From Balanoglossus misakiensis (Eukaryota > Animalia > Hemichordata), in assembly GCA_040954595.2 (NCBI GenBank), contig CM082582.2, positions 2,216,303 to 2,280,302 of the forward strand: DNA of 64,000 nt, written 5' to 3'. Below are positions 8,260 to 64,000 of the stretch, one piece after another (the first letter of the stretch is position 1; each line of letters opens with the position of its first letter). The notes under the pieces are model-generated. The model worked only from the letters and a program-made list of their open reading frames with translations, was not told the DNA's origin and did no database searches. A program made the translations under genes and the position numbers.

Positions 8260-8663
8260 CTGTGAATAAACAATGGGGAAAAATACTTATGTTTTGAGAC
8301 ATTTATTCAAATGAAATTGTGCATATATCTTAGTGACACACATACCAGTATGTAGATGTGTGCATGGCTGATCATACATAGGGAAACCGCGAAACCCAGG
8401 CCAAGTCTAGCCTTGCCTGGCCAAACCATCTCGGCTATAGTGATCGAAAAAAAACTCATCAACGCCACAATATTGCCACTGGTGATTTAGGAACAATGTC
8501 AGGGCTATACCAACACTAGTGACACACATGGACCACAAAAACATGTTTATAGCAGAGGGCCTTTTCTGGGTTTTTTTCTCAGTCTTGAATCCCTGTCTAG
8601 ATCCTCAGCAAAAGGCTCTGTCAAGCCTTTCACCCTCAGATCCCTCTTAAGAGAACCCAGCCT

Positions 8664-8957
8664 GTGATTGGAACTGCGCTGAGTACTACAGCTGGCCTCC
8701 AAGGCGCAAGACCGCGGCGTGTATGTACACTTTTCGTGTCCCGGCTGAATCCAGCAACAACATGTGAAAATGTTGAGCGCTATGCTGCGGACAAATTTGA
8801 TGTAGGTGTGAACTGTACAAAACTGAAAACAAAGTATGATATGTATGCTTCTTTTATGGTTGAATTATCTGATGTAGACATTAGAGTTGCCCTTGATCCT
8901 GTAAATTGGCCTCAGGATACTCTTGTAAGAAAATACTATAAATCTCAGACGCCATGA
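8664..8957 (+). pseudogene. Non-LTR retrotransposon ORF1, C-terminal RRM-like part (5'-truncated)
   Basis: LFVSRLNP...YASFMV...WPQDTLVRKY is a typical LINE ORF1 C-terminus. Its TGA overlaps the ORF2 ATG (ATGA at 8954-8957). Confidence 0.75.
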
Positions 8958-10570: not shown

Positions 10571-10800
10571 AGGGCCCAAGCGCTTGCTTGCGCTTGGGCC
10601 CTATTGGTTTCGTTGGGGTTTTTAGGGCCCAAGCCAAGCCAGGCTTGGGCCCTATTGGTTTCGTTGGAATTTTTCAGTCTTTCTTTCTTTCTTTAGGGCC
10701 CAAGCGCATACCAGCGCTTGGGCCCTATTGGTTTCGTTGGGGTTTTTAGGGCCCAAGCGCAAGCAAGCGCTTGGGCCCTATTGGTTTCGTTGGAATTTTT
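10571..10800 (+). repeat. Stack of four ~53-bp palindromic element heads
   Basis: Repeating unit ttagggcccaagc[variable loop]gcttgggccctattggtttcgttgg(gg/aa)tttt. Confidence 0.95.
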
Positions 10801-13800: not shown

Positions 13801-16800
13801 ACCTTTGACCTACTTAACACTATATCAGCACCAAACATAGATATAACCTTGATATTTCATTTGCTAAAACACAGCATTATGTTTCTACTCATTAATTATG
13901 TGCATATCTAATAATCAGATCAGATAATAAAGCTTGGGCCCGGACAATGCTGCTTGCAGCTTTAATTCTTTCTTTCTTTCTTTCTTTCTTTATTCTTGTG
14001 TCAATTCTTTGTCGCTCTAGATCTCAGACACCGCTGCAGGTACACTTCTGAAACTTGCTACAGTGGTCAAGGTCAATGAGTAGTCGTGCATTGAACCCTT
14101 GAATTTTTAATTAGTCACGTGACCTGGCGGCCATATTGGATATTCTGAAAAAATGCAAATCTCAGATCTCAGAAACTACAAGTCAGATCGACTTCAAATT
14201 TGGTGTGCAGGTAGTTTACCTTCTACCCATCATTTTTGTAATTGGAAATTATGCTGTCAATGTTGCAGTTTTTTTGCTACAATTTTTTTTCTGAAATCTG
14301 GCTTAAATTTCAAAAATCTTCTTCTCCAGAACCGGTGATAACCGAGTCACGCGGTTTGGGGTATGTGGTCACCTAACTGATGTCTATCAAGTTTGCGAAG
14401 ATCATTGTGATTGGTTGAAGATTATGGCGGCCATATTGGATTTTCGAAAAACCCTAGTAAAATTTCAAAAATCTTCTTCTCAAGAACCGGCGATAACCGA
14501 GTCACAAGATTTGGTGTGTGTGGTCACTAAACAGATGTCTATCAAGTTTGCGAAGAGGAATGTGATTGGTCGAAGATTATGGCGGCCATATTGGATTTTG
14601 TGAAAAACGATTAAAAAGTAAAAATTCCCTTTCTAGCCTAAAAATTGATAGCACAGAAATTCTTTTTATGGATATGAATCATCATATGACAAGAATAAGC
14701 TATAAATATTTTGGTAATTTTGGCAATGACCTTTGACCTACTTTTGACGCATGATTTTTCTGCATATCTAATTCCAGGCTAACCAATAGGGCTATAAGTT
14801 TGGTTTTTGATGTATGTCGATTTGTATGTGATCCAAAAATTTTGCTACTTTTCATGACCCCTTTGACCTCTGCTGACCTCATTAAATATGTACATACCTA
14901 ATTACAGATGAACCAATAGACCTAGAGGTTTTGTTTTTGTTATACATGGACCAGTATGGGGTCAAAATATTTTGCCCAAATGTTGGGTGACCTCAGGTGA
15001 CCTTTGACCTACTTTTGCATATCTCGACATCCACAGCAGATACAGCCTTGGCGTTTGGAGGTATGGGGCCATAATGAAAAGCCAAAGTTTTGGGTCACCT
15101 GTGACACCTGCTTAACTCATTAATTATGTGCATACCTAATTATAGGCTAACCAAAAGGGCTAGAGGTCTGGTTTTTGTTGGACATGGACCACTATGGGTC
15201 AAAATTTTCTGCCCAAATTTTGGATGACCTCAGATGACCTTTGACCTACTTTTGCATATCTCGGCATCCAAAGCAGGTACAGCCTTGGCATTTGGAGGTA
15301 TGGGGCCATAATGAAAAGCCAAAGCCAAAGTTTTGGGTCACCTGTGACACCTGCTTTAGGCATTATTTATGTGCATACCTAATTCCAGGCTAACCAAAAG
15401 GGCTAGAGGTCTGGTTTTTGTTGGACATGGACCACTATGGGTTAAAATTTTCTGCCCAAATGTTGGGTGACCTCTGGGTGACCTTTGACCTACTTAACAC
15501 TTTATCAGCACCAAACATAGATATAACCTTGATATTTCATGGGATAGAACAGCATTATGTTTCTACTCATTAATTATGTGCATATCTAATATCAGATCAG
15601 ATAATAGAGCTTGGGCCCGGACAATGCTGCTTGCAGCTTTAATTCTTTCTTTCTTTCTTTATTCTTGTGTCATTCTTTGTCGCTCTAGATCTCAGACACC
15701 ACTGCAGATACAGTTCTCAAACTTGCTACAGTGGTCAAGGTCAATGAGTAGTCGTGCATTGAACCCATGAATTTTTAATTAGTCACATGACCTGGCGGCC
15801 ATATTGGATTTTCTGAAAAAATGCAAATCTCAGATCTCAGAAACTACAAGTCAGATCGACTTCAAATTTGGCGTGCAGGTAGACTACCTTCTGTCAATCA
15901 TTTTTGTAATTGGAAATTATGCTGACAAAGTTGCAGTTTTTTTGCTACAATTTTTTTTCTGAAATCTGGCTTAAATTTCAAAAATCTTCTTCTCCAGAAC
16001 CGGTGATAACCAAGACACGGGGTTTGGGGTATGTGGTCACCTAACTGATGTCTATCAAGTTTGCGAAGATCATTGTGATTGGTTGAAGATTATGGCGGCC
16101 ATATTGGATTTTCGAAAAACCCTAGTAAAATTGCAAAATTCTTCTTCTCAAGAACCGGCGATAACCGAGTCACAAGATTTGGTGTGTGTGGTCATTAATC
16201 AGATGTCTATCAAGTTTGCGAAGAGCATTGTGATTGGTCGAAGATTATGGCGGCCATATTGGATTTTGTGAAAAACGATTAAAAAGTAGAAATTCCCTTT
16301 CTAGCCTAAAAATTGATAGCACAGAAATTCTTTTTATGGATATGAATCATCATATGACAAGAATAAGCTATAAATATTTTGGTAATTTTGGCAATGACCT
16401 TTGACCTACTTTTGACGCATCATTTTTCTGCATATCTAATTCCAGGCTAACCAATATGGCTATAAGTTTGGTTTTTGATGTATGTGGATTTGTATGTGAT
16501 CAAAAAATTTTGCTACTTTTTGTGACCCCTTTGACCTCTGCTGACCTCATTAAATATGCACATACCTAATTAATGATGAACCGGTAGACCTAGAGGTTTT
16601 GTTTTTGTTATACATGGACCAGTATGGGGTCAAAATATTTTGCCCAAATGTTGGGTGACCTCGGGTGACCTTTGACCTACTTTTGCATATCTCGACATCC
16701 ACAGCAGATACAGCCTTGGCGTTTGGAGGTATGGGGCCATAATGAAAAGCCAAAGTTTTGGGTCACCTGTGACCCCTGCTCAACTCATTATTTATGTGCA

Positions 16801-18497
16801 TACCTAATTCTGTGCTAACCAAAAGGCCTAGAGGTCTGGTTTTTGTTGGACATGGACCACTATGGGTCAAAATTTTCTGCCCAAATTGTGGGTGACCTCT
16901 GGGTGACCTTTGACCTACTTAACACTATATCAGCACCAAACATAGATATAACCTTGATATTTCATGGGATAAACACAGCATTATGTTCCATCTCATTAAT
17001 TATGTGCATATCTAATATCAGATCAGATAATAAAGCTTGGGCCCGGACAATGCTGCTTGCAGCTTTAATTCTTTCTTTCTTTCTTTCTTTTTTCTTGTGT
17101 CAATTCTTCGGCCAACGAGATCTCTTAAACTACTGCAGGTACACTGCTCAAACTTGCTACAGTTGTCAAGGTCTATGAGTAGATGTGCAGTGACTTGTAA
17201 ATACTTAATTAGTCATGTGACCTGGCGGCCATATTGGATTTTCTGAAAAAATGCAAATCTCAGATCTCAGAAACTACTAGTCAGATCGACTTCAAATTTG
17301 GCATGCAGGTAGACTACCTTCTACCCATCATTTTTGTAATTGGAAATTTTGCTGTCAATGTTGCAGTTTTTTTGCTACAATTTTTTTTCTGAAATCTGGC
17401 TTAAATTTCAAAAATCTTCTTCTCCAGAACCGGTGATAACCGAGACACGGGGTTTGGGGTATGTGGTCACCTAACTGATGTCTAGCAAGTTTGAGAAGAT
17501 CATTGTGATTGGTCGAAGATTATGGCGGCCATATTGGATTTTCGAAAAACCATAGTTAAACTCCAAAAATCTTCTTCTCCAGAACGGGCGATGACTGAGT
17601 CGCAAGATTCGGGGAGTATGGTCACTACACTGATGTCTATCAAGTTTGCAAAGAGCATTGTGATTGGTCGAAGATTATGGCGGCCATATTGGATTTTGTC
17701 AAAAGCAGTGAAAAATTGAAATTCCTTTTTCTAGTCTAAAAATTGATAGCATACAAATTCTTTTTATGGATATCAATCGTCATGTGACTAAAATATGTTA
17801 GAATTTTTTGGCGATTTTTCACATGACCTTTGACCTACTTATCACGCGTTATTATTTCTGCATATCTAATTCCAGGCTAACCTGTAGGGCTAGACGTTTG
17901 GTTTTTGATGAATGTGGATTAGTGTGTGATCAAAATATTTTGCTACTTTACATGACCCCTTTGACCTCTGCTGACCTCATTAATTATGTGCATAGCTAAT
18001 TACAGGTGAACCAATAGAGCTAGAGGTTTGGTTTTTGTTGGACATGGACCAGTATGGGATCAAAACTTTTTGCCCAAATGTTGTGTGACCTCTGGTGACC
18101 TTTGACCTACTTTCGCATATCTCAGCATCCAGAGCAGATACAGCCATGGCATTTGGTAGGATGGGACCAAAATGTAAAGCCACATTTTTGGGTCACCTGT
18201 GACATCTGCTGACCTCATTAAATATGCACATACCTAATTACAGGCGAACCAATAGAGCTAGAGTTTTGGTTTTTGTTGGACGTGGACCAGTATGGGTAAA
18301 AAAAAATTGCCCAAATGTTGGGTGATCTCAGGTGACCTTTGACCTACTTCACCCTATTTCAGCAGCAAAAATACACACATCCTTGTTATGTCATGAGATA
18401 ATACATCCGATAGAAAATTCTGTTTCTTCTCATTCATACTGTGCATATATAATTCGAGATCAGCGCTTGGGCCCGACAATGCTGCTCGCAGCTTTAA
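10571..18497 (+). mobile_element. Cluster 1: five nested non-autonomous Helentron-like (HINE/DINE-1-type) elements
   Basis: Heads (agggcccaagc-loop-gcttgggccct) at 10571, 10624, 10695, 10748 and 12228. Tails (gcttgggccc...gctgct[t/c]gcagc-tttaa) end at 12225, 13965, 15642, 17068 and 18497. The cluster sits in a T-run of the LINE with only two extra T and no longer TSD. Confidence 0.8.
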
Positions 18498-18499
18498 TT

Positions 18500-18580
18500 T
18501 TAGTTCCAATTATTAAGGATAAAACTAAGCTTTGTAGTGATGCCAGTAACTACCGGCCGATAGCACTAGCAACTGTTTTT
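18500..18580 (+). mobile_element. Resumption of LINE ORF2 (RT N-terminal motif)
   Basis: LVPIIKDKTKLCSDASNYRPIALATVF joins in frame to AIKVI ending at 10570. NYRPI is the canonical LINE RT motif. Confidence 0.93.
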
Positions 18581-19934
18581 GAAATATCAAGGTTATATCT
18601 ATGTTTGGTGCTGATATAGTGTTAAGTAGGTCAAAGGTCACCCAGAGGTCACCCACAATTTGGGCAGAAAATTTTGACCCATAGTGGTCCATGTCCAACA
18701 AAAACCAGACCTCTAGGCCTTTTGGTTAGCACAGAATTAGGTATGCACATAAATAATGAGTTGAGCAGGGGTCACAGGTGACCCAAAACTTTGGCTTTTC
18801 ATTATGGCCCCATACCTCCAAACGCCAAGGCTGTATCTGCTGTGGATGTCGAGATATGCAAAAGTAGGTCAAAGGTCACCCGAGGTCACCCAACATTTGG
18901 GCAAAATATTTTGACCCCATACTGGTCCATGTATAACAAAAACAAAACCTCTAGGTCTACCGGTTCATCATTAATTAGGTATGTGCATATTTAATGAGGT
19001 CAGCAGAGGTCAAAGGGGTCACAAAAAGTAGCAAAATTTTTTGATCACATACAAATCCACATACATCAAAAACCAAACTTATAGCCATATTGGTTAGCCT
19101 GGAATTAGATATGCAGAAAAATGATGCGTCAAAAGTAGGTCAAAGGTCATTGCCAAAATTACCAAAATATTTATAGCTTATTCTTGTCATATGATGATTC
19201 ATATCCATAAAAAGAATTTCTGTGCTATCAATTTTTAGGCTAGAAAGGGAATTTCTACTTTTTAATCGTTTTTCACAAAATCCAATATGGCCGCCATAAT
19301 CTTCGACCAATCACAATGCTCTTCGCAAACTTGATAGACATCTGATTAATGACCACACACACCAAATCTTGTGACTCGGTTATCGCCGGTTCTTGAGAAG
19401 AAGAATTTTGCAATTTTACTAGGGTTTTTCGAAAATCCAATATGGCCGCCATAATCTTCAACCAATCACAATGATCTTCGCAAACTTGATAGACATCAGT
19501 TAGGTGACCACATACCCCAAACCCCGTGTCTTGGTTATCACCGGTTCTGGAGAAGAAGATTTTTGAAATTTAAGCCAGATTTCAGAAAAAAAATTGTAGC
19601 AAAAAAACTGCAACTTTGTCAGCATAATTTCCAATTACAAAAATGATTGACAGAAGGTAGTCTACCTGCACGCCAAATTTGAAGTCGATCTGACTTGTAG
19701 TTTCTGAGATCTGAGATTTGCATTTTTTCAGAAAATCCAATATGGCCGCCAGGTCATGTGACTAATTAAAAATTCATGGGTTCAATGCACGACTACTCAT
19801 TGACCTTGACCACTGTAGCAAGTTTGAGAACTGTATCTGCAGTGGTGTCTGAGATCTAGAGCGACAAAGAATGACACAAGAATAAAGAAAGAAAGAAAGA
19901 ATTAAAGCTGCAAGCAGCATTGTCCGGGCCCAAG
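18580..19934 (-). repeat. 1355-bp inverted duplicate of 15610-16964
   Basis: The ends map as reverse complements (coordinate sum 35544). The mirrored ORF translations are identical: 16083-16271(+) with 19273-19461(-), and 16550-16753(-) with 18791-18994(+). Confidence 0.95.
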
Positions 19935-19949
19935 TTTTTGAGCATATTT

Positions 19950-20400
19950 GGGGGCACAAGCGCCCTCAGGCGGCTTGTGCCCCCATTGTTATTGTTGGAA
20001 TTTTTCTTTATTAGGGCCCAAGCGCACGCAAGCGCTTGGGCCCTATTGGTTTTGTTGGAATTTTTAGGGCCCAAGCGCACGCAAGCGCTTGGGCCCTATT
20101 GGTTTCGTTGGAATTTTTTAGGGCCCAAGCGCAACAAGCAAGCGCTTGGGCCCTATTGGTTTCGTTGGAATTTTTCTTTCTTTCTTTAGGGCCCAAGCGC
20201 TTGCTTGCGCTTGGGCCCTATTGGTTTCGTTGGGGTTTTTAGGGCCCAAGCGCAAGCAAGCGCTTGGGCCCTATTGGTTTCGTTGGAATTTTTTAGGGCC
20301 CAAGCCCAGCAGGCTTGGGCCCTATTGGTATTACTGGGGTTTTTTAGGGCACAAGCCCCACAGGCTTGTGCCCTATTGGTATTGTTGGCTTTTTTCTTCT
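19950..20400 (+). repeat. Stack of eight heads from three subfamilies
   Basis: Divergent head gggggcacaagc...gcttgtgccccc at 19950; family A heads at 20013, 20066, 20120, 20188 and 20241; family B heads (followed by ggtatt) at 20295 and 20346. Confidence 0.95.
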
Positions 20401-23400
20401 ACTTCTTCTTGGGCACTTTTTTCGGCCAGGTAGATCTGAAAAACTGCTGAACCCAAAAATCTCAAATTTGGCACAATGGTGCAGGCCAATGAGAGCTGGT
20501 GCAGTACCCTCGTGAATGTTCAATAAGTCATGTGACCTGATGACCATATATGGGCAAAATTTTCAAATCGGCCTTATTTGCATATGCACGGAGATATCAA
20601 AATTCTTTTAGCAACTTTTGTGAACCATGTGGTCAGGGTTCTACATGCCAAATGTCAAGGCCATAGGCCTTGTCAATTTTGAGAAGAAGATTTTTAAGTA
20701 TTATTTTTCATATTTTTCGGCCAAGCCATCGGCCTATACTATACATAGTTAAGCTTTGACCACATTTTATTTTGGATGAATATGCAGTCATATCTCAAAA
20801 TATGTTGGGCCGATCAACTCCAAGTTTGGTGTGCAGGTAGCTTAGCATTTGCCAATAATTTTAAGCGAAAAAAATTAATATGAAAAATCGACCGATTTTT
20901 TTATATTAATTTTTTTATGAAATTTATACCTTTACTTATACCTCTATGGTTAAGCTATGTCCACGTCTTATTGTAGAATTCTGGTCTGTGCAATGTTCCT
21001 GTACACTGACTGTCTATTGGCCCGTGCGCAGAATGGGACCAAAATAAAAGGCAAAATTTTGGGCTCACCTGTAACACCTGCTTAACTCATTAATTATGCA
21101 CATACCTCATTCCGGGCTAACTAATAGGGCTAGAGGTATTGTTCTTGTGTGACAAGGACTAGTATGGGGTCAAAAATGTTTACCAAATTTTCGGTGACCT
21201 CAGGTGACCTTTGACCTACTTTCCTATATCTCGGCATCCAGAGCAGGTACAGACTTGGCGTTTGGAGGGTTGTGACTAAAATTGAAAAGCCAAAATGGGG
21301 ATCACCTGTGACACCTGCATATCTCATTAATTATGTGCATACCTAATTCCAGGATGACCAGTAGAGCTATAGGTTTGGTTTTTGTTGAACATGGACCAGT
21401 ATAGGGTCAAAATTTCTTGCCCAAATTTCGCATGACCTCAGGTGACCTTTGACCTACTTTACCATATCTTGGCATCCAGAGCAGGTACAGACTTGGCGTT
21501 CGGAGGGTTGGGATTAAAATTGAAAAGCCGAATTGGCGCTCACCTGTGTCACCTGCATATCTCATTAATTATGTGCATACCTAATTCCAGGCTAACCAAT
21601 AGAGCTATAGGTTTGGTTTTTGTTAAACATGGACCAGTATAGGGTCAAAATTTCTTGCCCAAATTTTGCATGACCTCAGGTGACCTTTGACCTACTTTAC
21701 CAGATCTCGGCATCCAGAGCAGGTACAGGCTTGGCGTTTGGAGGGTTGGGACTAAAATTGGAAAGCCAAATTGGGGGTCAGTTGTGACACCTGCCTACCT
21801 CATTAATTATGTGCATACCTAATTTCAGGCTAACCAATAGGGCTATAGGTTTGGTTTTTGTTGAACATGGACCAGTATAGGGTCAAAATTTCTTGCCGAA
21901 ATTTTGCATGACCTCAGGTGACCTTTGACCTACTTAACCATATCTTGGCATCCAGAGCAGATATGCTTATTGCTATGTTGCTATGTGCTATGTTGGCTTG
22001 GGCCCGCTATTGCTGCTTGCAGCTATATTCTTCTACTTCTTCTTCTTTTTCTTCTTCTGTCATTTTCTTTGGCGAGGTAGATCTGGAAAACTGCTAAACC
22101 TACCAATTTCAAACTTGGCACAATGGTGCAGGCCAATGAGAGCTAGTGCAGTACCCTTGTGAATGTTTAATTAGTCACGTGACCTGATGACCATATATGG
22201 GCAAAATTTTCAAATCCGCCTTATTTGCATATGAATGGAGATATCACAATTCTTTTAGCAACTTTTGCGGACCATGTGGTCAGTGTCCTACATGCCAAAT
22301 GTCAAGGCCATTGGCCATGCCAATTTTGAGAAGAAGATTTTTAAGTATTATTTTCCATATTTTTTGACCAAGCCATGGGCCTATACTTTACATAGTAAAG
22401 CTATGACCACATATTATTTTGGAGAAATAAGCATACATATCTCAAAATCTGTTAGGCCGATCATCTCCAACTTTGGTGTGCAGCAAGCCTAGCATTTGTC
22501 AATAATTTTAAGCAGAAAAAAATAATATGAAAAATCGACAGATTTTTTTATATTAATTTGTTTATTAAATTTATACCTTTGCTTATACCTCTATGGTTAA
22601 GCTATGTCCATGTCTTATTGTGGAATTCTGGTCAGTGCGATAGTCCTGTACAGTGAGTGTCTATTGGTCAGTGAGCACAATGGCACCAAAATAAAAGGCA
22701 AAATTTTAGGCTCACCTGTAACACCTGCTTAACTCATTAATTATGTGCATACCTAATTCTGGGCTAACTAAGAGGGCTAGATGTTTCGTTCTTGTGGGAC
22801 ATGGACCAGTATAGGGCCAACATTTCTTGCCCAAATTTGGGGTGAACTCAGGTGACCTTTGACCTACTTTCCTATATCTCGGCATCCAGAGCAGGTACAG
22901 ACTTGGCGTTTGGAGGGTTGGGACTAAAGTTGAAAAGCCAAAATAGGGGTCACCTGTGACACCTGCATATCTCATTAATTATGTGCATACCTAATTCCAG
23001 GCTAACCAATAGGGCTATAGGTTTTGTTTTTGTTGAACATGGACCAGTACAGGGTCAAAATTTCTTGCCCAAATTTTGCATGACCTCAGGTGACCTTTGA
23101 CCTACTTTACCAGATCTTGGCATCGAGAGCAGGTACAGACTTGGCGTTTGGAGGGTTGGGACTAAAATTGAAAAGCCAAATTGGGGGGTCACCTGTGACA
23201 CCTGCCTACCTCATTAATTATGTGCATACCTAATTCCAGGCTAACCAATAGGGCTATAGGTTTGGTTTTTGATGAACATGGACCAGTATAGGGTCAAAAT
23301 TTCTCGCCCAAATTTTGCATGACCTCAGGTGACCTTTGACCTACTTTTCCATATCTTGGCATCCAGAGCAGATATGCTTATTGCTATGTTGCTATGTGCT

Positions 23401-23440
23401 ATGTTGGCTTGGGCCCGCCATTGCTGCTTGCAGCTATATT
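20295..23440 (+). mobile_element. Two nested family-B HINE-like elements
   Basis: Two B heads are followed by two B bodies with a (CTT)n linker, a distinct body sequence and tails ending gcagctatatt. Confidence 0.85.
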
Positions 23441-24874: not shown

Positions 24875-25140
24875 AGGGCCCAAGCGCATACCAGCGCTTG
24901 GGCCCTATTGGTTTCGTTGGAATTTTTAGGGCCCAAGCGCAAGCAAGCGCTTGGGCCCTATTGGTTTCGTCTGGGTTTTTCTGTCTTTAGGGCCCAAGCG
25001 CATACCAGCGCTTGGGCCCTATTGGTTTCGTTGGGGTTTTTCAGTCTTTCTTTCCTTCTTAGGGCCCAAGCGCAAGCAAGCGCTTGGGCCCTATTGGTTT
25101 CGTTGGGGTTTTTCTGTCTTTCCTTCTTTCTTCTTTCTTT
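24875..25140 (+). repeat. Stack of four heads
   Basis: Heads at 24875, 24928, 24989 and 25061; near-copy of the stack at 26555. Confidence 0.95.
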
Positions 25141-26554: not shown

Positions 26555-26925
26555 AGGGCCCAAGCGCATACCAGCGCTTGGGCCCTATTGGTTTCGTTGG
26601 AATTTTTAGGGCCCAAGCGCAAGCAAGCGCTTGGGCCCTATTGGTTTCGTTGGAATTTTTAGGGCCCAAGCGCACAGCAGCGCTTGGGCCCTATTGGTTT
26701 CGTCTGGGTTTTTCTGTCTTTAGGGCCCAAGCGCATACCAGCGCTTGGGCCCTATTGGTTTCGTTGGGGTTTTTCAGTCTTTCTTTCCTTCTTAGGGCCC
26801 AAGCGCAAGCAAGCGCTTGGGCCCTATTGGTTTCGTTGGGGTTTTTTAGGGCCCAAGCGCAAGCAAGCGCTTGGGCCCTATTGGTTTCGTTGGAATTTTT
26901 CTTTCTTTCTTTCTTTCTTTCTTTA
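26555..26925 (+). repeat. Stack of six heads
   Basis: Heads at 26555, 26608, 26661, 26722, 26794 and 26848. Confidence 0.95.
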
Positions 26926-52100: not shown

Positions 52101-54203
52101 CCTGGTGGCCATATTGGATTTTCTGAAAAAAATCAAATCTCAGATCTCAGAAACTACAAGTCAGATCGACTTCAAATTTGGCATGCAGGTAGACTACCTT
52201 CTACCCATCATTTTTGTAATTGGAAATTTTGCTGTCAATGTTGCAGTTTTTTTGCTACAATTTTTTTTCTGAAATCTGGCTTAAATTTCAAAAATCTTCT
52301 TCTCCAGAACCGGTGATAAGCGAGACACAAGGTTTGGGGTATGTGGTCACCTAACTGATGTCTATCAAGTTTGCGAAGATCATTGTGATTGGTCGGAGAT
52401 TATGGCGGCCATATTGGATTTTCGAAAAACCATAGTTAAACTCCAAAAATCTTCTTCTCCAGAACGGGCGATGACTGAGTCGCAAGATTCGGGGAGTATG
52501 GTCACTACACTGATGTCTATCAAGTTTGCAAAGAGCATTGTGATTGGTCGAAGATTATGGCGGCCATATTGGATTTTGTAAAAAGCAGTGAAAAATTAAA
52601 ATTCCTTTTTCTAGTATAAAAATTGATAGCATACAAATTCTTTTAATGGATATCATTCGTCATATGACAACAATATGTTACAAATTTTTGGCGATTTTTC
52701 ACATGACGTTTGACCTACTTTTCACACATTATTATTTCTGCATATCTAATTCCAGGCTAACCTATAGGGCTAGACGTTTGGTTTTTGATGCATGTGGATT
52801 AGTGTGTGATCAAAATATTTTGCTACTTTTCATGACCCCTTTGACCTCTGCCGACCTCATTAATTATGTGCATAGCTAATTACAGGCGAACCAATACAGC
52901 TAGAGGTTTGGTTTTTTTTGAACATGGACCAGTATGGGGTCAAAAATTTTTGCCCAAATGTTGGGTGACCTCTGGTGACCTTTGACCTACTTTCGCATAT
53001 CTCAACGTCCAGAGCAGATACAGCCTTGGCATTTGGCAGGATGGGACCTAAATGTAAAGCCAAATTTTTGGGTCACCTGTGACACCTGCTGACCTCATTA
53101 AATATGCACATACCTAATTACACGCGAACCAATAGAGCTAGAGTTTTGGCTTTTGTTGGACATGGCCCAGCATGGGTCAAAAATTTTTGCCCAAATGTTG
53201 GGTGATCTCAGGTGACCTTTGACCTACTTTACCCTATTTCAGCCGCAAAAATACACACGTCCTTGTTATGTCATGAGATAATACACCCGATAGAAACTGT
53301 TTCTTCTCATTCATACTGCGCATATATAATTCAGGATCAGCGCTTGGGCCCGACAATGCTGCTCGCAGCTTTAATTCTTTCTTTATTCTTGTGTCAATTC
53401 TTCGGCCAACTAAATCTCTGAAACTACTGCAGGTACACTGCTCAAACTTGCTATAGTGGTCAAGGTCTATGAGTAGATGTGCAGTGACTTGTGAATACTT
53501 AATTAGTCACGTGACCTGGCGGCCATATTGGATTTTCTGAAAAAATGCAAATCTCAGATCTCAGAAACTACAAGTCAGATCGACTTCAAATTTGGCATGC
53601 AGGTAGACTACCTTCTACCCATCATTTTTGTAATTGGATATTTTGCTGTAAATGTTGCAGTTTTTTTGCTACAATTTTTTTTCTGAAATCTGGCTTAAAT
53701 TTCAAAAATCTTCTTCTCCAGAACCGGTGATAACCGAGCCACGGGGTTTGGGGTATGTGGTCACCTAACTGATGTCTATCAAGTTTGCGAAGATCATTGT
53801 GATTGGTCGAAGATTATGGCGGCCATATTGGATTTTCGAAAAACCATAGTTAAACTCCAAAAATCTTCTTCTCCAAAACGGGCGATGACTGAGTCGCAAG
53901 ATTCGGGGAGTATGGTCACTACACTGATGTCTATCAAGTTTGCAAAGAGCATTGTGATTGGTCGAAGATTATGGCGGCCATATTGGATTTTGTAAAAAGC
54001 AGTGACAAATTCGCGGGTTCCGAGTTACCGAAACAGGCCACCTTGGCCGCGTGAGGGCGTATCAATGACGTCATTATAAGTACAAAGTGCATGATCTGAT
54101 GGGACCAAAATTCAAAATGGCGGCAGTGCGTGTGTGATCGATCGTGATCAATTCTGCTTGCAACTCCGTACTGGCATTATTTTGACAAAAAGACTTCCTG
54201 AAA

Positions 54204-54365
54204 ATGGTTAATTGGTTTTGTGCGGCTACGGACTGTACTATCAGCTTGCGCAATAAAAGAAACGCCGCAAAATACCCTGGATTGGCAGAGGTGACATTTC
54301 ATGCATTCCCAACTGAGAAACATCGCTGACTTCGGCAGCAGTGGATTTCCGTGTTACGTCGAAAG
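54204..54365 (+). pseudogene. THAP zinc-finger relic (transposase N-terminus)
   Basis: MVNWFCAATDC...(frameshift)...VTFHAFPTEKHR*LRQQWISVLRR has the THAP C-x-C, FP and W pattern. No DDE core was recognised downstream. Confidence 0.7.
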
Positions 54366-55085
54366 GATGCCCACTAGTCGCTTGGTGATTTTTGGAATAT
54401 CAATACTTTGTGTGTGTTTGCGGTGATTTTTTGTTTGTCTTTATTAATAATCTCAATATTGTGTGCGTGCTTGCCTTGAGCGTGTTTCTGGTAGTGAGGC
54501 GAGTTTCGAATTTGAGACTGATCTCATGGTTTCTGGTAGCGCCGCTACGTGTTCCCTACACATACGCGCTCACACTCGCTGACGTTTACTCCACACACAA
54601 AAAAGCAAAGCATTTATAATAGTTACATTTTTAGACATGTCATGAATTTTATTCAGCCAATAAAAATTTAACTGTGGCTGTACATGTGGTGTCTTTTTGA
54701 TTCAAATCTTAGTGCTTTTACAAGAGTTTCACACGTCACTCTACTAGAAGTACCATGAGTGATGACCCTCACTTTTTGTTTCACTTTTGACATTAAAGAG
54801 GGTGTGACTGCAGAGAAGTGTGAAATACAATATATCGTGTAAGGGAATATTGTATGTTAGTTGGTTAGAGAACTGGGGAACTTGGTTTCGGTTAGTAGGT
54901 TAGTTGGTTAATGCAAACATTCCTTGATTCCCTTACAACATATTTTTTATTTGTTGATCTCGCTACAGTCACAACCTCTTTGACATCATAAGTGAAACAA
55001 AAAGTGAGAATCACTTTTTCTCTAAAATAAAAGTAAACAATACTAAGCTATACCATGGTTATCCTTTTCACTATCAATCACAGTC

Positions 55086-56774
55086 CTATGTACAACTGAC
55101 AACAATGTTAAGTACAATAAAATCCTCATAAAATGTAGAAAGTTTAGCTTCAGTTGTTTTCCCAAACAATTCATCGAAATATATCCTCTCTATTGAAATG
55201 GCTTTTCTTGTGAATAACACAAAATCACACCATTGCAGTTTACAAGTAGCAAGTTGCATTTGTATTTGGGTATACCATTTTGATGTCCTCCTCAAACACA
55301 CTTTGCCATCTACATCCAAAAATACATGGTATTTGGGAACTCTAAGCTTGATATATCACATGGGAATATATTGCGGTGTTTGCTGGAACATTTGATTTCA
55401 CACATTTAAAGCTGGCAATGATAGTGATTTTACTAGCTATATTGGAGAATCTGTATCAGAAGCTGATATTGATTTTATGTCATCACTGACAGCTGATCAA
55501 AGCGATTATGAGGATTGGTATTTGTATAGACAAGGGAGCGTTACTGCCAGTATTGCACATGATATCGTTCACATGAAAGAAACTCAGGATTTGAATAACT
55601 ACATAGTCCAAAAAATTATGTCTGGCAGTCACAGGACAATACCTTCAACCCACATTGATTGTGGTATTACATGAACCTGTTGCTAAGCATTTATATCACG
55701 AGCAATACAAAAAGTTGCACCGGAAAGTGAAATTTCAAGATGTTGGCTTAGTCATCAGTTCTGACAAGTCATATCTTAGTTCAAGTCCTGATGGGAGGGT
55801 ATCATGCGAATGTTGTGGGACATCAAATGGCACCTGGATAATAGTTGGACATAGTTGGTCTTGGTGTGTCAGGTTCAGACTTATCCTTTCTAATGTCAAG
55901 CTCATCTATTTCCATAGGAGTGGACTCTTTGCGGGGTTTATCCCACTTACAGGGAACATCAGTACCAACTTGAATATTTCTGTCTTTGTGGCATCTATCG
56001 AAGTCGTTGATGCTAAACAACAATGCAACACAATGTTTGCATGTTCCATGCTCACTGTAAAAAAAATTCAGATACATGGTAAATGTTAACGCATGATTGC
56101 AGCATGATTTTGTTTATGCCTCTCTGTGACTGTCAAATGAAAACTGAGGTATTCAAACCTAAAACGTCAATGCATCAAATGGAGAATGAAATCATATTAA
56201 CTATTTTCAAACATTATCTAATTTTGCAAATCCTGATTTACAGTCCTCAACAGGACTTTAAATTAGTCAACAGATACTGTTGGAAAAACATAGACAATTC
56301 TGTCAGACTCTACTGACAGTTTTCTCATCGAAACACACAGATACAAAGCAAACCGAACTAAAAAACAAATGTCAAAATACATGTATAACCATGGTTATTT
56401 CAACCCACCATTTCTATGTACCTAGTCACACTGGTAGAACTAAAAGCCACGGTGGATTAAAATGATAAAATTTATATTAAAAAATACTTACGCAACACAA
56501 CTACAGCCTCAGAAGAGAATGGAGGTCGCTGACCCACTCGGTGATCGTCGCCTGATCAGGCAAAGTGATGTAGAATTGCTTTTGGCTGGGTCGCGATCGT
56601 CTGCTACCGTCCGCCTTTTTTGCTCGAAATTTCCTGGTCACCAGGCTCGAGTGGCCGAACGTCCAGTTCTATGGCTAACTCCACTACCTGAATTAGTCTA
56701 TCTTTCCTGGTATTACAGCAAGTTATACCTCTTTCCGACAAAAACTTTCTCAGGTCAGGAACTTATGTAAACAT
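55086..56774 (-). pseudogene. Spliced SAP-SWIM-YqaJ/lambda-exonuclease gene relic with an inverted internal segment
   Basis: Minus strand: SAP-like VPDLRKFLSERGI, GCSCVA plus GTAAGT donor (~56490), acceptor (~56056), GTCKHCVALLF (SWIM), then EIKC (~55399) and YTQIQMQLATCKLQWCDFV. The intervening W..R.G.VTAS and SSSPDGRVSCECCG motifs lie on the plus strand (~55403-55823). Confidence 0.8.
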
Positions 56775-58434
56775 GACCCCAGTCAGGACCGGAAGTCCAG
56801 TGGTCCCAACTCGCACGCCCTCAGGCGACAAGAGTCTATGAACTTTCTACTTTATTGAGAACTCGGAACCCGCGAATTGAAATTCCTTTTTCTAGTCTAA
56901 AAATTGATAGCATACAAATTCTTTTAATGGATATCAATCGTCATGTGACTAAAATATGTTACAATTTTTTGGCGATTTTTCACATGACCTTTGACCTACT
57001 TATCACGCGTTATTATTTCTGCATATCTAATTCCAGGCTAATCTATAAGGCTAGACGTTTGGTTTTTGATGAATGTGGATTAGTGTGTGATCAAAATATT
57101 TTGCTACTTTTCATGACCCCTTTGACCTCTGCTGACCTCATTAATTATGTGCATAGCTAATTACAGGCGAACCAATAGAGCTAGAGGTTTGGTTTTTGTT
57201 GGACATGGACCAGTATGGGATCAAAATTTTTGCCCAAATTTTGGGTGACCTCTGGTGACCTTTGACCTACTTTCGCATATCTCAGCATCCAGAGCAGATA
57301 CAGCCATGGCATTTGGCAGGATGGGACCAAAATGTAAAGCCACATTTTTGGGTCACCTGTGACACCTGCTGACCTCATTAAATATGCACATAGCTAATTA
57401 CAGGCGAACCAATAGAGCTACAGTTTTGGTTTTTGTTGGACATGGACCAGTATGGGTAAAAAAAAATTGCCCAAATGTTGGGTGACCTCAGGTGACCTTT
57501 GACCTACTTCACCCTATTTCAGCAGCAAAATACACACATCCTTGTTATGTCATGAGATAATACATACGATAGAAAATTATGTTTCTTCTCATTCATACTG
57601 TGCATATATAATTCAAGATCAGCGCTTGGGCCCGACAATGCTGCTCGCAGCTTTAATTATTAGGGCCCAAGCCCAGCAGGCTTGGGCCCTATTGGTATTA
57701 CTAGGGTTTTTTAGGGCCCAAGCCCAGCAGGCTTGGGCCCTATTGGTATTACTGGGGTTTTTCTTCTACTTCTTCTTCTTTTTCTTCTTCTGTCGTTTTC
57801 TTTGGCGAGGTAGATCTGGAAAACTGCTAAACCTAACAATTTCAAACTTGGCACAATGGTGCAGGCCAATGAGAGCTAGTGCAGTACCCTTGTGAATGTT
57901 AAATTAGTCACGTGACCTAATGACCATATATGGGCAAAATTTCCAAATCGGCCTTATTTGCATATGAATGGAGATATCAAAATTCTTTTAGCAACTTTTG
58001 CGGACCATGTGGTCAGTGTCCTACTTGCCAAATGTCAAGGCCATTGGCCATGCCAATTTTGAGAAGAAGATTTTTAAGTATTATTTTTCATATTTTTTTA
58101 CCAAGCCATGGGCCTATACTTTCCATAGTAAAGCTATGACCACATATTATTTTGGATAAATATGCATACATATCTCAAAATCTGTTAGGCCAATCATCTC
58201 CAACTTTGGTGTGCAGCTAGACTAGCATTTGTCAATAATTTTAAGCGAAAAAAAATAGTATGAAAAATCGACGGATTTTTTTATATTAATTTTTTTAATA
58301 AATTTATACCTTTACTTATACCTCTATGTCGATGTCTTATTGTGGAATTCTGGTCTGTGCAATAGTCCTGTACAGTGACTGTCTATTGGTCAGTGAGCAC
58401 AATGGCACCAAAATAAAAGGCACAATTTTAGGCT

Positions 58435-59750
58435 CACCTGTAACACCTGCTTAACTCATTAATTATGTGCATACCTAATTCTGGGCTAACTAAGAGGGCT
58501 AGAGGTTTCGTTCTTGTGGGACATGGACCAGTATAGGGTTAAACATTCCTGCCAAAATTTGGGGTGACCTCAGGTGACCTTTGACCTACTTTCCTGTATC
58601 TTGGCATCCACAGCAGGTACAGACTTGGCGTTTGGAGGGTTGGGACTAAAATTGAAAAGCCAAACTTGGAGGTCACCTGTGACACCTGCTTATCTCATTA
58701 ATTATGTGCATACCTAATTCCAGGCTAACCAATAGGGCTAGAGGTTAGATTTTTGTTGAACATGGACAAGTATTGGGTCAAAATTTCTTACCCAAATTTT
58801 GGGTGACCTCAGGTGACCTTTGACATACTTTCCTATATCTCGGCTTCCAGAGCAGGTACAGACTTGGCATTTGGAGGGATGGAACTCCTAATGGAGCCTT
58901 ACACTTTACGTCATTAAATATGCACATACCTAATTATAGGTGAACCAATAAGGCCAGAGGTCTGGTTTTTGTTGGACCGGGATTAGTATAGGGTCAAAAT
59001 TTACTGCCAAAATTTTGGGTAACCTCAGGTGACCTTTGACCTACTTTACCACATCTCGGTATCCCCAGCAGGTACAGCCTTGGTATTTGGAGGGATGGAA
59101 CTCCTAATGGAGTCTTACACTTTACCTCATTAATTATGTGCATACCTAATTCTAGGCTTGCCAATAGGGCTAGATGTTTGATTTTTGTTGAACATGGACC
59201 AGTATGGGATCAACATTTCTTGCCCAAATTTTGGTGACCTGAGGTGGCCTTTGACCTACTTTCCTATATCTCGGCATCCAGAGCAGGTACAGCCGTGGCG
59301 TTGGAGGGTTGGGACTAAATTGAAAAGCCAAAATTGGGGGTCACCTGTGACACCTGCTTAACTCATTTATTATGTGCATACCTAATTCCACGCTAACCAA
59401 TAGGGCTAGAGGTTTGTTTTTGTTGAACATGGATCAGTATGGGGTCAAAATTTCTTGTCCAAAGTTTGGGTGACCTTTGACCTATTTTACCTTATCTCGG
59501 TATCCAGAGTAGATACAGCCTTGGCATTTGGAGGGATGGAACACTTTACCTCATTAATTATGTCCAAAAATAATTCGAGGCGAACGTAGGCCTAGAGGTC
59601 TGGTTTTTGTTGGACCTGGATAAGTATTGGGTCAAATTTTTGGTGACCTCACATGACCTTTAACATTAATGTGGAAATAAGCACACACCTGTAATGGCAT
59701 GCCCTTGACCTCCGACCTAATTAATTATGTGCATATCTAATTCTGTGCTG
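58435..59750 (+). repeat. Expanded, progressively degenerate ~220-240-bp internal subrepeat (about six copies)
   Basis: Recurrent ctcattaattatgtgcatacctaatt...ggtgacctttgacctactt units near 58455, 58695, 58910, 59125, 59362, 59550 and a remnant near 59720. Confidence 0.85.
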
Positions 59751-60913
59751 ACAAATACACCTTGGATGCTAATTTCCGATGGAGAGGTACCAATAGTGGA
59801 CCAAACAATTTTTCCTAAATGTCACGTGATTTTACTGGGGATCTGTATTACCCGTACATTTGTCTGCTTAAGTTTGAAATGATTTCATGATATATTCAAT
59901 TATGAGCAAACACATTTCAGACAAAGTTTACTATTCTTTATTAAATGCTCACAAATAATCAAACATAAGAGGAAGTACAAGTTAAAAAAAAATTACTACA
60001 GTAGTAAAGAACAACATACCACATAATGTAATACTAATATGTAAATTGCAAAAGCTAAGTTTGATATGCGTGGGGTTTTCATCATTAGGGTTCATTTAAC
60101 ATTGACCTGTATCTCTACATGTTTTCTTATTTTCGTTTATACAATACACTTAGTATTCCACCCACAAAAATACTTTGTTCATCACACAACTCAATTGCAT
60201 AATGTTGTTAAAACTTTTACAAAACATGCAAGTCTATCATACATTTATCTTTGAAAATATTGAGCACAGTGTACTATGAACTTTTAATTCTTGTTAAGTA
60301 CATAGTGCTCATGATTACTTTGAAGTGGTAATATCAACCAGAAAAAGACTGAGATTCACTACATTCCAATATGCTATTCTTCAAAATGAAGAATGTATGT
60401 ATGAAATTGCAGTAACTGTGTATACTCATTGTGCAAATTGCACAGATTCACGAAATCTCAAAATAAACATTAACGTGGCAATAATAGAAACATATGCCTG
60501 TTACACTAAATAATACAAGGACATGTATAATTGACACAATGTGATTTCTTGCAACAAAACATTAATAGAGCTGGCTACAACTCATACAGAGCCCAGGAAA
60601 ACATAGACAATTGCACCTTATAGTCGAGATGTCTGTTGGACCAATAAATATATGGTGTACTGTGTAAAATCTTTCTCCATCGATTCAAGAAATTCAGTTG
60701 CATAATTGAACAACAACAATATCAACCAATTTTTAAAACATACTGCATTTACTGTGGCTGCATAATAGTAATTACATAAATGCATTAAATATGGAAGTTA
60801 ATTTGTAATTAACATAACACTGGTCAACAATACAAGTATGGCACTATAATGGACTATATTGTCTTACAATATTAGACCTATAACTGCATAAACATTACAT
60901 CAAATTTACTTAT

Positions 60914-61874
60914 CAGTAATTACCGGGTTTCACTGATAGTTCGCCCATCCAAAAAATTGCTCTTGGGTGATTTTTGGGCTGGTGGGCAACTATTTGGGAT
61001 TCTTATATTGAATTTCTGGCCGTGACATGGAAAATAGAACATCAACGATTCACCAAAGACATCCAGCGACAAATGATTACTGTACGTAAACATTCTGTCA
61101 CAGCAGGGTCCCCCTTTTTTACTATCACAAGGGAAATGACATGCAAAAATATTAAAGAAAAATACAATACACTTTGAATAACACCAGATTGAAAACAAGA
61201 CGATCTTGGAGACAAAAGTCAACAGTGCGCTGCTCTTCGCTTGAATTTCGCGAAGGATCGGTAGCACAGACTCCATTCGCTTTCCATGGGTTAACTGGCC
61301 AAGGTGATGAATCATGTCCATCTTCTGCTTGGAGGTCAGTACAGGCGGCTTTGCATCGCACAGCTTACCAGTGAACAGCACTGTTCATCTCAATGTAACA
61401 TGTGAATTCCATTGACGTCATATCTGCCATGGGGACAACGGTAAGCGCGTCCAATTCAACGGTGACCACAGAGTCCGAATCTGAGGAGATGGCTTTCTTA
61501 AAGCAACAAACAAGTGTTTGCGGCGTGACTTGGTCCCACAGCTCCTTCGCCATATACACGGCATCCAAGATGGTGAACATCTTCACAACATTGACAACTC
61601 ATATCAGCATCGGCGTCTAGGGCAGCGATGATGCGCATGTTCATGTTCGGTGGCAACGATCTCAACTAGATGTTTGTTAAAGCAATCTTCGGTGGGTAGG
61701 CAGAACAGCTGTCGAAGAGCAATCAGATGACATGCTTGCGCCCAAGTAGGTGTTTTAAAATGTAGCCAAATTATCGCCCGGGCGACTAATTGGTTCCAGG
61801 TGTGCACCTGTCAATTTCCTCAGTTTCCAATTAATTGCCCTGGGCGCACTATCAGTAAAACCCGGTAATAACTG
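60914..61874 (-). mobile_element. Tigger/pogo-like (Tc1/mariner superfamily) deleted element
   Basis: 33-bp TIRs cagtaattaccgggtttcactgatagttcgccc / gggcgcactatcagtaaaacccggtaataactg with 3 mismatches. TA follows the right end; the left flank is imperfect. Internal peptide TILDAVYMAKELWDQVTPQTLVCCFKKA matches the pogo/Tigger transposase C-terminal motif. Confidence 0.8.
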
Positions 61875-62577
61875 TAAGACTAATCACGTGATGGCATTAT
61901 ATATGCAATTTTCAATAACTATTGGAAGAGAAATATTCCCTCATTGAATATCACTTAAAAGCACATTTCACATTTTTACATCAAACAAAAGCAGTAATTC
62001 ACAGAAACTCTCACATATGCCAATTCAAGAAAAACAATATATTGTCTCAAATATATACATTATGTTTCAACAGATATTGGCCCCCGAAATTACAAAAACC
62101 ACCTATATATACACTTAAACACATTAATATCTCATAAATACATTTCAATTCATTGAACAGTTAATCAGTAAACATCAGGCATACCAATGACAATCACTGA
62201 TAAGTGTGTGTAAGCAACACAAAGAAATTGACAGGACTGTCTTAAAGGGGAAAGTTACTGATGCATATGATGTGATTGCAATCAATACAGAACAATCGCC
62301 ATAAAAATATACACAATGAATACAATGACAGTAATATACTAATTGTAATTATTGTCACTTTAAAGGGTCAAAATCACTGTTTGACTAATATGCACACAAA
62401 TACATAGAATTGCAGAATAAACATACTCGGTATTTTCTAGTCTGTATGGAAATCACACAACAAAAACTACTTCTCCTATCAAACAAAATACCCCCCCCCC
62501 CCTTAAAATCATAAACAACGACTTTGTCCCCTTATCCTACAGGACCTGCAACCACCCCCCCCCCCCCCCAATTAAGA

Positions 62578-62733
62578 CTCTGATTAATATCACCTGTACA
62601 GGCTCTTTGTCTTTATACTTGTCAGGTCTTCCTAATTCTTGTTTACTCCTGACATGTGAACAGGAGTAAAAAACGACACAGACCTGACCATGATAAAGAC
62701 AGAGCATATCTTTACAGCTGCCATTAATCAGAG
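62578..62733. repeat. ~155-nt imperfect fold-back downstream of the helicase ORF
   Basis: Outer arms ctctgattaat...gtcaggtct / agacctgac...attaatcagag, plus a perfect inner 10-bp stem tttactcctg / caggagtaaa (62642-62670). Confidence 0.75.
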
Positions 62734-62864
62734 ATTGAATTAAAACACAACAAATGTGGCCCCGTCACCATTAGATTGCCACACAATTTTTATTATCAGG
62801 ACGGGTTTATTCTTTGGAATTATTTTGCTGTATATCACGTTTGTCTCAATGTTAGTGTCAGTAT

Positions 62865-64000
62865 TCAAATCTGAATGCGTATGGCTTCATGAAAACTAAA
62901 GTATTTGGGTACAATCTCTACTGTGACATTTTCTATGCCTTTCACATATACATGGTCAATCAATGTACCAGCTTCTGTGGTTGCTCTATTAACACACTGC
63001 TTGAAACCACAGCATTGCATTAAATCCACAAGAGATGACGATGTGAATATGTTCTCATTGAAATCACCCATGATCACTATCCCACCATGGCGTTTACCCA
63101 TTTCATTCACTAAGAGAAGCAAGCTCTTCATGAATGTCTCCATTTTGTATGATGGTGGTCTGTAAACTACTGCTACTGTTACATTGATGTCTTCAACATA
63201 AAATGCCATATATTCTAGGTTAACAACAGGTAGATGCAAAATTTCAACGGTTCTGGGAATAGTACAGTACACTCCAACACCACCCCTATGTTGCGATTGC
63301 AAAGTTGCAGTATTGTTATTAAATTGATTATAGGATGAACTTCGAGGTTTGTGACTAAATACAAAACCACTGACTTCTAAATCAGATTCTATTGTTGTCT
63401 CTGATAGCCATGTTTCTGTCAAACAAATGAAGTCTGACTCCAAATATTCAGCACCACTGTGAATATCTTCAATGTGGTTTTGAACACCCTCAATATTATG
63501 CAGTATGAAAGTGCAAGCATGACTTGTCTGCAACTTTGTTTCACATGTATCAAGAAACTGTGGCATTTCTGCCAAAGCAGCCTGTATCTTTGGATTGCAA
63601 TAAATAGAAGATGTTTCAAATTCATCAATGACAAGACCTTCCAATGATGTCACTCGACTCAACGCAACATATGCCTGTCCTGGTGCAAACATCTTCTTTA
63701 AACTAACCACAGCTTTATCAACTGTCAATCCTTGTACCTTGTGCACTGTACATGCCCATGCTAGTTTCAGAGGAAACTGTCTCCTAATACCACCATTAAT
63801 TGCAACGGACAATTCCTGAGGTTCAATACGTGTGCTCCTTTCTGGTAACTGAACTACATTAGGTGTTTTCCTGCGCAACTTTTGCCCAACACTTACATTA
63901 TCAAACACCACATAAACAGCCGTTGGGAAAGTCCCAGATTCCTTCACTTCAATATGGCATACTGTTCCAAATACACCATTCACCAGCCCATCAGAAACAT
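62865..64000 (-). CDS. Helentron Rep/Helicase C-terminus: PIF1-family helicase fused to an apurinic-type (EEP) endonuclease
   Basis: The frame is open to the window edge. PIF1 motifs GLVNG, RRQFPLKLAWACTVHKVQGLT and GQAYVALSRV are followed by EEP motifs HNIEG, CLTETWL, GGVGVY, VYRPP, GDFNE, TLIDHVY and SFHEAI. This fusion is the hallmark of Helentrons. Confidence 0.93.
   Translation of the reverse strand, partial: VSDGLVNGVFGTVCHIEVKESGTFPTAVYVVFDNVSVGQKLRRKTPNVVQLPERSTRIEPQELSVAINGGIRRQFPLKLAWACTVHKVQGLTVDKAVVSLKKMFAPGQAYVALSRVTSLEGLVIDEFETSSIYCNPKIQAALAEMPQFLDTCETKLQTSHACTFILHNIEGVQNHIEDIHSGAEYLESDFICLTETWLSETTIESDLEVSGFVFSHKPRSSSYNQFNNNTATLQSQHRGGVGVYCTIPRTVEILHLPVVNLEYMAFYVEDINVTVAVVYRPPSYKMETFMKSLLLLVNEMGKRHGGIVIMGDFNENIFTSSSLVDLMQCCGFKQCVNRATTEAGTLIDHVYVKGIENVTVEIVPKYFSFHEAIRIQI

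Follow-up and report, generated by a model that had tools for sequence, protein, structure and literature searches.

Helentrons (HLE2 with an endonuclease) and the HINE/DINE-1 elements are the closest described relatives of the locus analysed here. As at this locus, an EEP endonuclease domain is fused to the helicase C-terminus, and the elements combine a 5' subterminal inverted repeat (subTIR) with an inverted repeat, a microsatellite, central repeats, a 3' subTIR with a stem-loop, and insertion into T-tracts without duplication (PMC4067079). They are copied by a rolling circle from the 5' end to the 3' subTIR and stem-loop, and insert at T-tracts (PMC4067079, PMC3627910, PMC5148889). Among the Helentrons covered in the parts of PMC4067079 that bear on this, the open reading frame (ORF) points in the majority away from the 5' end; reversed ORFs are on record for Helentron-Da-40, Helitron-1_DR, Helitron-2_CRe and FoHeli4/5 (PMC4067079, PMC3627910, PMC5148889), and the reversed type has been named "HLE2-reverse" (PMC11417382). 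The locus is a 64,000-nt stretch of the hemichordate Balanoglossus misakiensis (contig CM082582.2), hereafter the window, in which about 30 short gene-less copies lie one inside another and at whose right edge a helicase-endonuclease ORF ends. Our comparisons rest on this window, on protein relatives and on metagenome contigs with related elements; coordinates are positions in the window, and A and B denote the two main types of ends and bodies. We consider it reasonably probable, taking the account as a whole, that the Helentron ORF and a B-type 5' end ("head") at 57712 are parts of one B-family element running past the window, and that the stack arose by the mechanism proposed below.

The identity of the gene is supported by its sequence relationships. 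The ORF runs on the minus strand from 63998 to 62865 as 377 codons without a stop or frameshift, and Pfam finds Exo_endo_phos in it at E=3e-11. Pfam matches to helicase C-terminal families are weak (Herpes_Helicase 0.0014; UvrD_C_2 0.068) and PF05970 gives no match in the 377-codon fragment, so the PIF1 assignment rests on full-length relatives. At an E threshold of 0.001, 2242 of 4771 longer candidates were retained, those from Saccoglossus (54-58%), Haliotis (53%) and fish (up to 50%) being the best; most of these best relatives carry Helitron_like_N, PIF1 and EEP, and the nearest Saccoglossus and Haliotis proteins have DUF6570 as well. The ORF is colinear over 99-100% of its length with many Rep-PIF1-EEP proteins, with the helicase motifs and EEP in one frame, and aligns at 54.6% to the C-terminal end of one full-length relative (P0002, residues 1291-1666); because the match begins only at residue 1291, about 1290 residues including Rep should lie outside the window, Rep itself some 3 kb or more past 64000. 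The catalytic residues N168, E195, Y279, D312, N314, D348 and H370 are all kept, each being present in 111-120 of 120 relatives, and the endonuclease motifs nearly match the Acornworm-Hele1 row of PMC4067079. Motif VII reads S-F-H (among the 120 relatives Y occurs 54 times, D 34 times and F 10 times), the S-Y/F-H form being the usual one in Helentrons. In a quick tree of 61 rows (38 hand-chosen of the 120 proteins, 22 metagenome loci and the window, without a Helitron1 outgroup) the ORF groups with Saccoglossus and Haliotis (Shimodaira-Hasegawa-like approximate likelihood ratio support 88), within a group that also holds fish elements (88). An earlier reading of the window, made from the sequence alone, had described an uninterrupted PIF1+EEP ORF directed toward the head and had taken the fusion of a helicase with an apurinic/apyrimidinic endonuclease as the mark of a Helentron; both statements hold, since the domains share one frame, the ORF ends where its relatives end, and it groups with Helentron proteins.

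The last two of the 35 heads in the window start at 57661 and 57712; both are B-type and differ from one another in one spacer base and in T-run length, and the former is either the copy that hosts the next element or a second left end belonging to that element. The sequence-only reading had placed these heads at 57662 and 57713 and had typed the latter as B, which we confirm with a shift of one base. The left arm behind head 57712 is 95.8% identical (635/663) to the body of a short B copy, B2 (22060-22735), and 90.4% identical to the unique 5' part of a second, B1 (20420-21090). It leads into an array of seven subrepeat units, anchored at 58458, 58697, 58913, 59129, 59365, 59553 and 59720, as against four and three units in the two complete B copies. 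No A- or B-type tail was found between 59600 and 64000, in agreement with the earlier description of a B body with extra subrepeats and no tail. Compared with the majority of the five inner B1/B2 units, the first 110 nt of units 1-7 are 84.5, 92.7, 80.0, 90.8, 91.7, 74.1 and 63.6% identical; the last unit is colinear and ungapped at this 63.6% and fades out near 59830, its stretch beyond the anchor still giving 48/87 matches (shuffles 22.4+-4.1, maximum 41 in 5000 shuffles). B1 and B2, by contrast, both break off sharply within a young unit, some 35 bp ahead of the 3' subTIR. A young short copy interrupted by a later insertion would likewise end abruptly in a young unit; the graded edge, found although the left arm is 95.8% identical to B2, therefore speaks for a long element, and we infer that 57712 starts one whose array has an old natural edge.

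Between the end of the array and the stop codon (about 59830-62864) lie about 3.0 kb with no match elsewhere in the window. The sequence-only reading called this 3 kb of unique DNA; the length stands, with the correction that a 961-bp element with terminal inverted repeats (TIRs) and a 170-nt hairpin lie inside. The TIR element is a relic in which Pfam finds no match; one of its broken frames resembles Atlas clusters with DDE_1 on 11-16% of their members, and we presume it to be of pogo type. The hairpin sits just past the polyadenylation signals of the transposase gene, both of which fall within 80 bp of the stop codon; it could be a miniature inverted-repeat transposable element or a source of silencing RNA, and no Rfam family was found in it or elsewhere across 57.6-64 kb. 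Neither strand of 59600-64000 contains an A- or B-type head or tail, except for two 8-of-10 partial matches inside the TIR relic, and perfect GC-rich short hairpins occur in the gap only within that relic and the long hairpin.

A comparable layout was found in metagenome contigs. From a scan in which 80 of 150 confirmed loci were kept, five loci (L004, L010, L011, L013 and L025) form one Helentron family of a fish clade, the label "fish" being drawn from the tree and from sequence identity. L004 and L025 are too short past the stop codon, and L010 departs earlier; L011 and L013, which are 80-85% identical, share the stop codon, common unique DNA and then a subrepeat array in the same phase and orientation, interrupted in L011 by a TIR element. 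From this shared layout it follows that the arm downstream of a Helentron ORF can include an array as a constant component, and the array of the window would correspondingly be native to the head-side arm of its element. All three L011 profile matches to the window bodies (3/3) lean to the layout of the window, but at E 0.11-2 they are not significant. As background rather than as a test, short teleost elements with the L011/L013 array have the same kind of head and tail, in a fitting polarity.

Taken together, these data suggest that the ORF probably shares head 57712, in one long element whose gene points back toward its head. The earlier claim that the palindromic head is the end downstream of the transposase gene is thereby favoured, by the old array edge, by the lack of a same-family end in the gap and by the layout of L011 and L013. 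More tentatively, and somewhat short of an even chance, the locus could hold a still-coding Helentron of reversed layout inside a 50-kb stack of its own family, with a satellite-like array native to its head-side arm as in the fish Helentrons.

Several observations weigh against one long element, and some of them feed an alternative that we regard as unlikely, although less so than the others: two neighbours, in which the ORF comes from another Helentron family of the usual layout, with its head beyond 64000 and a weak tail in 59.83-62.8 kb, and in which the B body is the left arm that survives from a different long B element, the rest having disappeared through deletion or misassembly. The usual ORF orientation, opposite to the layout proposed here, is that of most Helentrons (PMC4067079, in the parts consulted). 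The locus is rearranged elsewhere, by an inversion, foreign insertions and a tandem duplication of 99.9% identity, and could likewise have broken at about 59.9 kb; an old TIR relic lies in the gap itself. The known tail hairpin has a folding energy of only -2.5 to -2.8 kcal/mol, whereas -3.0 or better is reached by 19 minus-strand windows in the gap; because a true tail folds so weakly, the free-energy scan has no power against a foreign tail, and a weak tail of an unrelated family might lie in the gap. Near Helentron ORFs an array is often an insertion of its own: L001 carries a fish-type array in reverse that is missing at that place from its 97% sister L002, and in L006 and L008 distinct short elements, each type with a tail of its own, sit beside the Helentron ORF. 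The polarity of the fish arrays, judged by similarity to the window bodies, gives profile E values of 0.11-4.7, which are not significant, and ambiguous alignment scores. The window edge falls at least 3.9 kb short of the gene start, and no second gene was found in the gap, including one of the OB-fold-like (oligonucleotide/oligosaccharide-binding) type seen downstream of the transposase in three metagenome loci. What speaks against two neighbours is that the array edge is old and graded instead of cut, that a GC-rich short stem-loop of tail type is absent outside the TIR relic and the long hairpin, and that the same layout recurs in two fish-clade paralogues.

A composite origin is a good deal less probable. 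On this account a short B-type element was the ancient target of a Helentron that entered it in opposite orientation and whose inner ends have since disappeared, the whole now moving as a unit and the short elements being the older; such a model has been published for reversed ORFs (Fig. 8 of PMC5148889). A degenerate unit start occurs just before the tail in A copies, so array and tail can be native neighbours, and the inner units of B1 and B2 do not descend from the 57712 array, both of which the composite would explain. The scans show no remnant of an inner end, however, and the abrupt end of B1 and B2 in a young unit is what deletion products would give. That the ORF is a host gene, or a LINE (long interspersed nuclear element) endonuclease next to a helicase fragment, is very improbable: a decayed LINE-type endonuclease does lie at 8.9-10.5 kb, but the single-frame colinearity with Rep-PIF1-EEP proteins and the Helentron form of motif VII stand against it.

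For a single long element, the origin of the short copies is a question in its own right. The sequence-only reading had made all of them, at 1.4 kb each, deletion derivatives of the 57712 element; head to tail, the unnested ones measure about 1.48-1.74 kb, and for most of them the derivation is not supported. A-type tails make up 26 of the 28 on the plus strand (B-type, 2/28), and A and B share 36-39 of the last 60 bases of the tail, 73% over 158 bp of the left arm, and ten identical bases in the subTIRs. Taking 80% or more over the last 60 bp as the mark of one subfamily, the A copies fall outside that of the B tail; for mite families the identity to the long element is 84-99.9% at both ends (PMC4067079, in the parts consulted). 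The short B copies are closer, their left arms being 90-96% and their inner units 88-91% identical to the 57712 element, a comparison of the left side only. The inner units of B1 and B2 are, on the other hand, 92-97% alike among themselves and at best 88-91% identical to any 57712 unit, a further point against the account given here; being closer to each other than to the 57712 units, they are not products of that copy, and B1 and B2 have the appearance of deletion derivatives from a close sister copy. To call the 57712 element the "driver of the stack" is an overstatement: only two plus-strand tails are B-type, and those come from the sister copy.

B1 and B2 both have the 3' subTIR and stem-loop, and together they record one insertion. 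Head 20294 joined to the body after the tail at 21998 rebuilds the uninterrupted junction seen at 57712, and B1 therefore entered the T-run without target duplication; this is one internal empty-site comparison (B1 in B2), with the T count ambiguous by one base.

The same organization pervades the stack. A pattern scan of the window located 35 palindromic heads and 29 tails; every head and 28 of the tails are on the plus strand, where they spread over about 47 kb, and the remaining tail is on the minus strand. Each short element has, in order, a head in which the subTIR (11 bp in B, 12 bp in one A type) pairs with an inverted repeat, a T-run with microsatellite, a unique arm, subrepeats of ~238 bp, a 3' subTIR and a small stem-loop; with subTIRs, 5' inverted repeat, microsatellite, central repeats and 3' stem-loop they have the feature set of HINE/DINE-1 elements. 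A T-tract directly follows every head, and the copies sit within it, on one strand. The block 10572-18493 reads as nested brackets, five heads being closed by five tails, and the type of the body agrees with that of the owner head in 29/29 bodies with an assigned owner (26 A, 3 B). As A dominates, pairing can be judged only from the B cases and from the A body that comes directly after them; B bodies go with B heads in 3/3 cases. The window end leaves seven heads open, a soft count because the 2849-bp duplication adds two tails and recurring head blocks can leave orphan heads, as has been proposed for Fusarium (PMC5148889). Head clusters recur as blocks, 93% identical over 1668 nt, suggesting that multi-head composites may be copied as units; those at 24876-25098 and 26556-26885 recur with the same spacers.

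The mechanism that we propose for the stack starts from established Helitron biology: the Rep domain nicks at the head, the helicase peels one strand as far as the 3' subTIR and stem-loop, and the copy enters a T-tract. With a T-tract behind its own head in each copy, new copies would insert into older ones in a single orientation and so make a stack grow, every insertion renewing the target. The long coding B element may have landed last, in or beside head 57661; the short B copies would derive from a sister copy in which a deletion fused a young unit with the final ~65 bp of the far end. The A copies, not derived from the 57712 element, would have been moved in trans by its transposase or by that of a sister. 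A role of the endonuclease in the choice of T-tracts, a hypothesis already in PMC4067079, is compatible with the intact predicted active site.

Table 1. Features of the two short B copies and of the interval from the last heads to the window edge.
Feature	Position	Strand	Basis or remark
Complete short B copy B1	20345..22030	+	Inserted in T-run of head 20294
Short B copy B2, body and tail	22030..23440	+	Head at 20294; final unit truncated sharply some 35 bp short of 3' subTIR
B-type 5' end, palindromic head and T-run	57661..57711	+	Head-pattern scan
B-type 5' end, subTIR paired with inverted repeat	57712..57747	+	Hairpin -16.1 kcal/mol as DNA
T-run and CTT-type microsatellite, insertion site of other copies	57748..57790	+	Junction rebuilt from head 20294 and body after tail 21998
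B-family unique left arm	57790..58457	+	95.8% identity to B2, 90.4% to B1
Subrepeat array, 7 units (239, 216, 216, 236, 188, 167, about 110 bp), decayed distal edge	58458..59830	+	Unit anchors
AT-rich spacer, presumed element arm or else host DNA	59831..60913	.	No match elsewhere in window
Relic of a separate TIR transposon (pogo/DDE_1-like) with broken frames; flanks of TA type, the left one imperfect	60914..61874	-	961 bp, 34-nt TIRs at 91%
AT-rich DNA downstream of stop codon	61875..62864	.	AATAAA signals on minus strand at 62806, 62789
Long imperfect hairpin	62570..62741	.	170 nt, -72 kcal/mol as RNA, z = -7.3
3' end of Helentron Rep/Helicase/AP-endonuclease gene, last helicase motifs and whole EEP domain	62865..64000	-	377 codons, unbroken, open at window edge

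Other features of the window deserve mention. The stack starts in a decayed LINE-type endonuclease/reverse transcriptase region (8942-10570), and the minus strand carries a COR-domain exon at 7423-8286. An inverted headless A copy (18580-19933), which starts exactly at the 3' subTIR, is adjoined by head 19952, a third head type. The segment 38701-44398 is a tandem duplication of 2849 bp at 99.86%, either very recent or an assembly artefact. An A body is split by a 2.87-kb element with 19-bp TIRs (54010-56875), which contains broken YqaJ-like frames and others that we take to be THAP-like.

Further searches looked beyond the window. Not one of the first 80 metagenome loci carries the exact head pattern, and in 45 of these loci scanned with a relaxed motif no convincing family end came to light; a palindrome at L009:4010 was rejected as a head, having no body beside it. 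Viral contigs gave no protein relative and 0 matches to the tail and body patterns, their two head-pattern matches being chance occurrences in unrelated DNA; prokaryote genomes gave only bacterial helicase-motif matches, and plasmid and phage collections no match. Three of the metagenome loci have related small ORFs downstream of the transposase (L012:9991-11400, L022:5590-5860 and L024:2790-3140), which seem to be spliced and by eye resemble an OB fold. The L022 contig, with its endonuclease-bearing Helentron-like ORF, ends at 9230-9270 in a hairpin and CTAG followed by T, the canonical 3' end of Helitron1. A 115-bp downstream segment is common to L006:2733-2846 and L009:3297-3411, whose Helentron copies are 74% alike; by eye it resembles a hammerhead-ribozyme core, and Rfam gives no match to it.

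Reversed ORFs, self-insertion, multiple 5' ends and the idea that the endonuclease selects T-tracts are already published. As the fusion, the reversed ORF and self-insertion have each been described, the gain is a worked example and not a new mechanism. A literature search, mostly at title level, with few subscription journals and without Repbase, found no earlier description of the B family or of an animal Helentron coding copy in such a stack, and a full-text search for the four end motifs returned only titles on unrelated topics. Should the proposed element be real, it would supply a transposase with cognate ends for testing the endonuclease's choice of T-tracts, a hypothesis since 2014, and a natural system for studying self-targeting by the endonuclease.

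Set beside the known systems, the locus shares with the reversed-ORF Helentrons and Helitron2 a transposase gene opposite to the head-to-tail direction, a likeness that depends here on the inferred link between ORF and end and that leaves aside the ends of Helitron-1_DR. Its subTIR is none of the 15 in Table S2 of PMC4067079, and its deep same-strand nesting is not described in the portions of that paper compared. Copies inside copies and several 5' ends before one body are found in Fusarium FoHeli elements (PMC5148889) and in Xenopus HelenXT233 with its two left ends (PMC11417382); the Fusarium account, as far as consulted, gives one nested example and short (<200 bp) 5' duplications, in contrast to the 35 heads and 28 tails here. 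A short box is common to the A bodies and a mollusc-type element in L008. The same modular build is seen in the oyster Cg_HINE with its satellite-like central arrays (PMC7492417). HINEs with such arrays are a vehicle by which satellite-like repeats spread in invertebrate genomes, and the origin of the arrays would be revealed by a parent whose ends match. In the oyster study, within the parts consulted, none of ten autonomous elements was tied to HINEs (PMC7492417), whereas here a candidate parent adjoins them, which, if the proposed element is real, would be the missing autonomous parent for the array-bearing HINEs of marine invertebrates.

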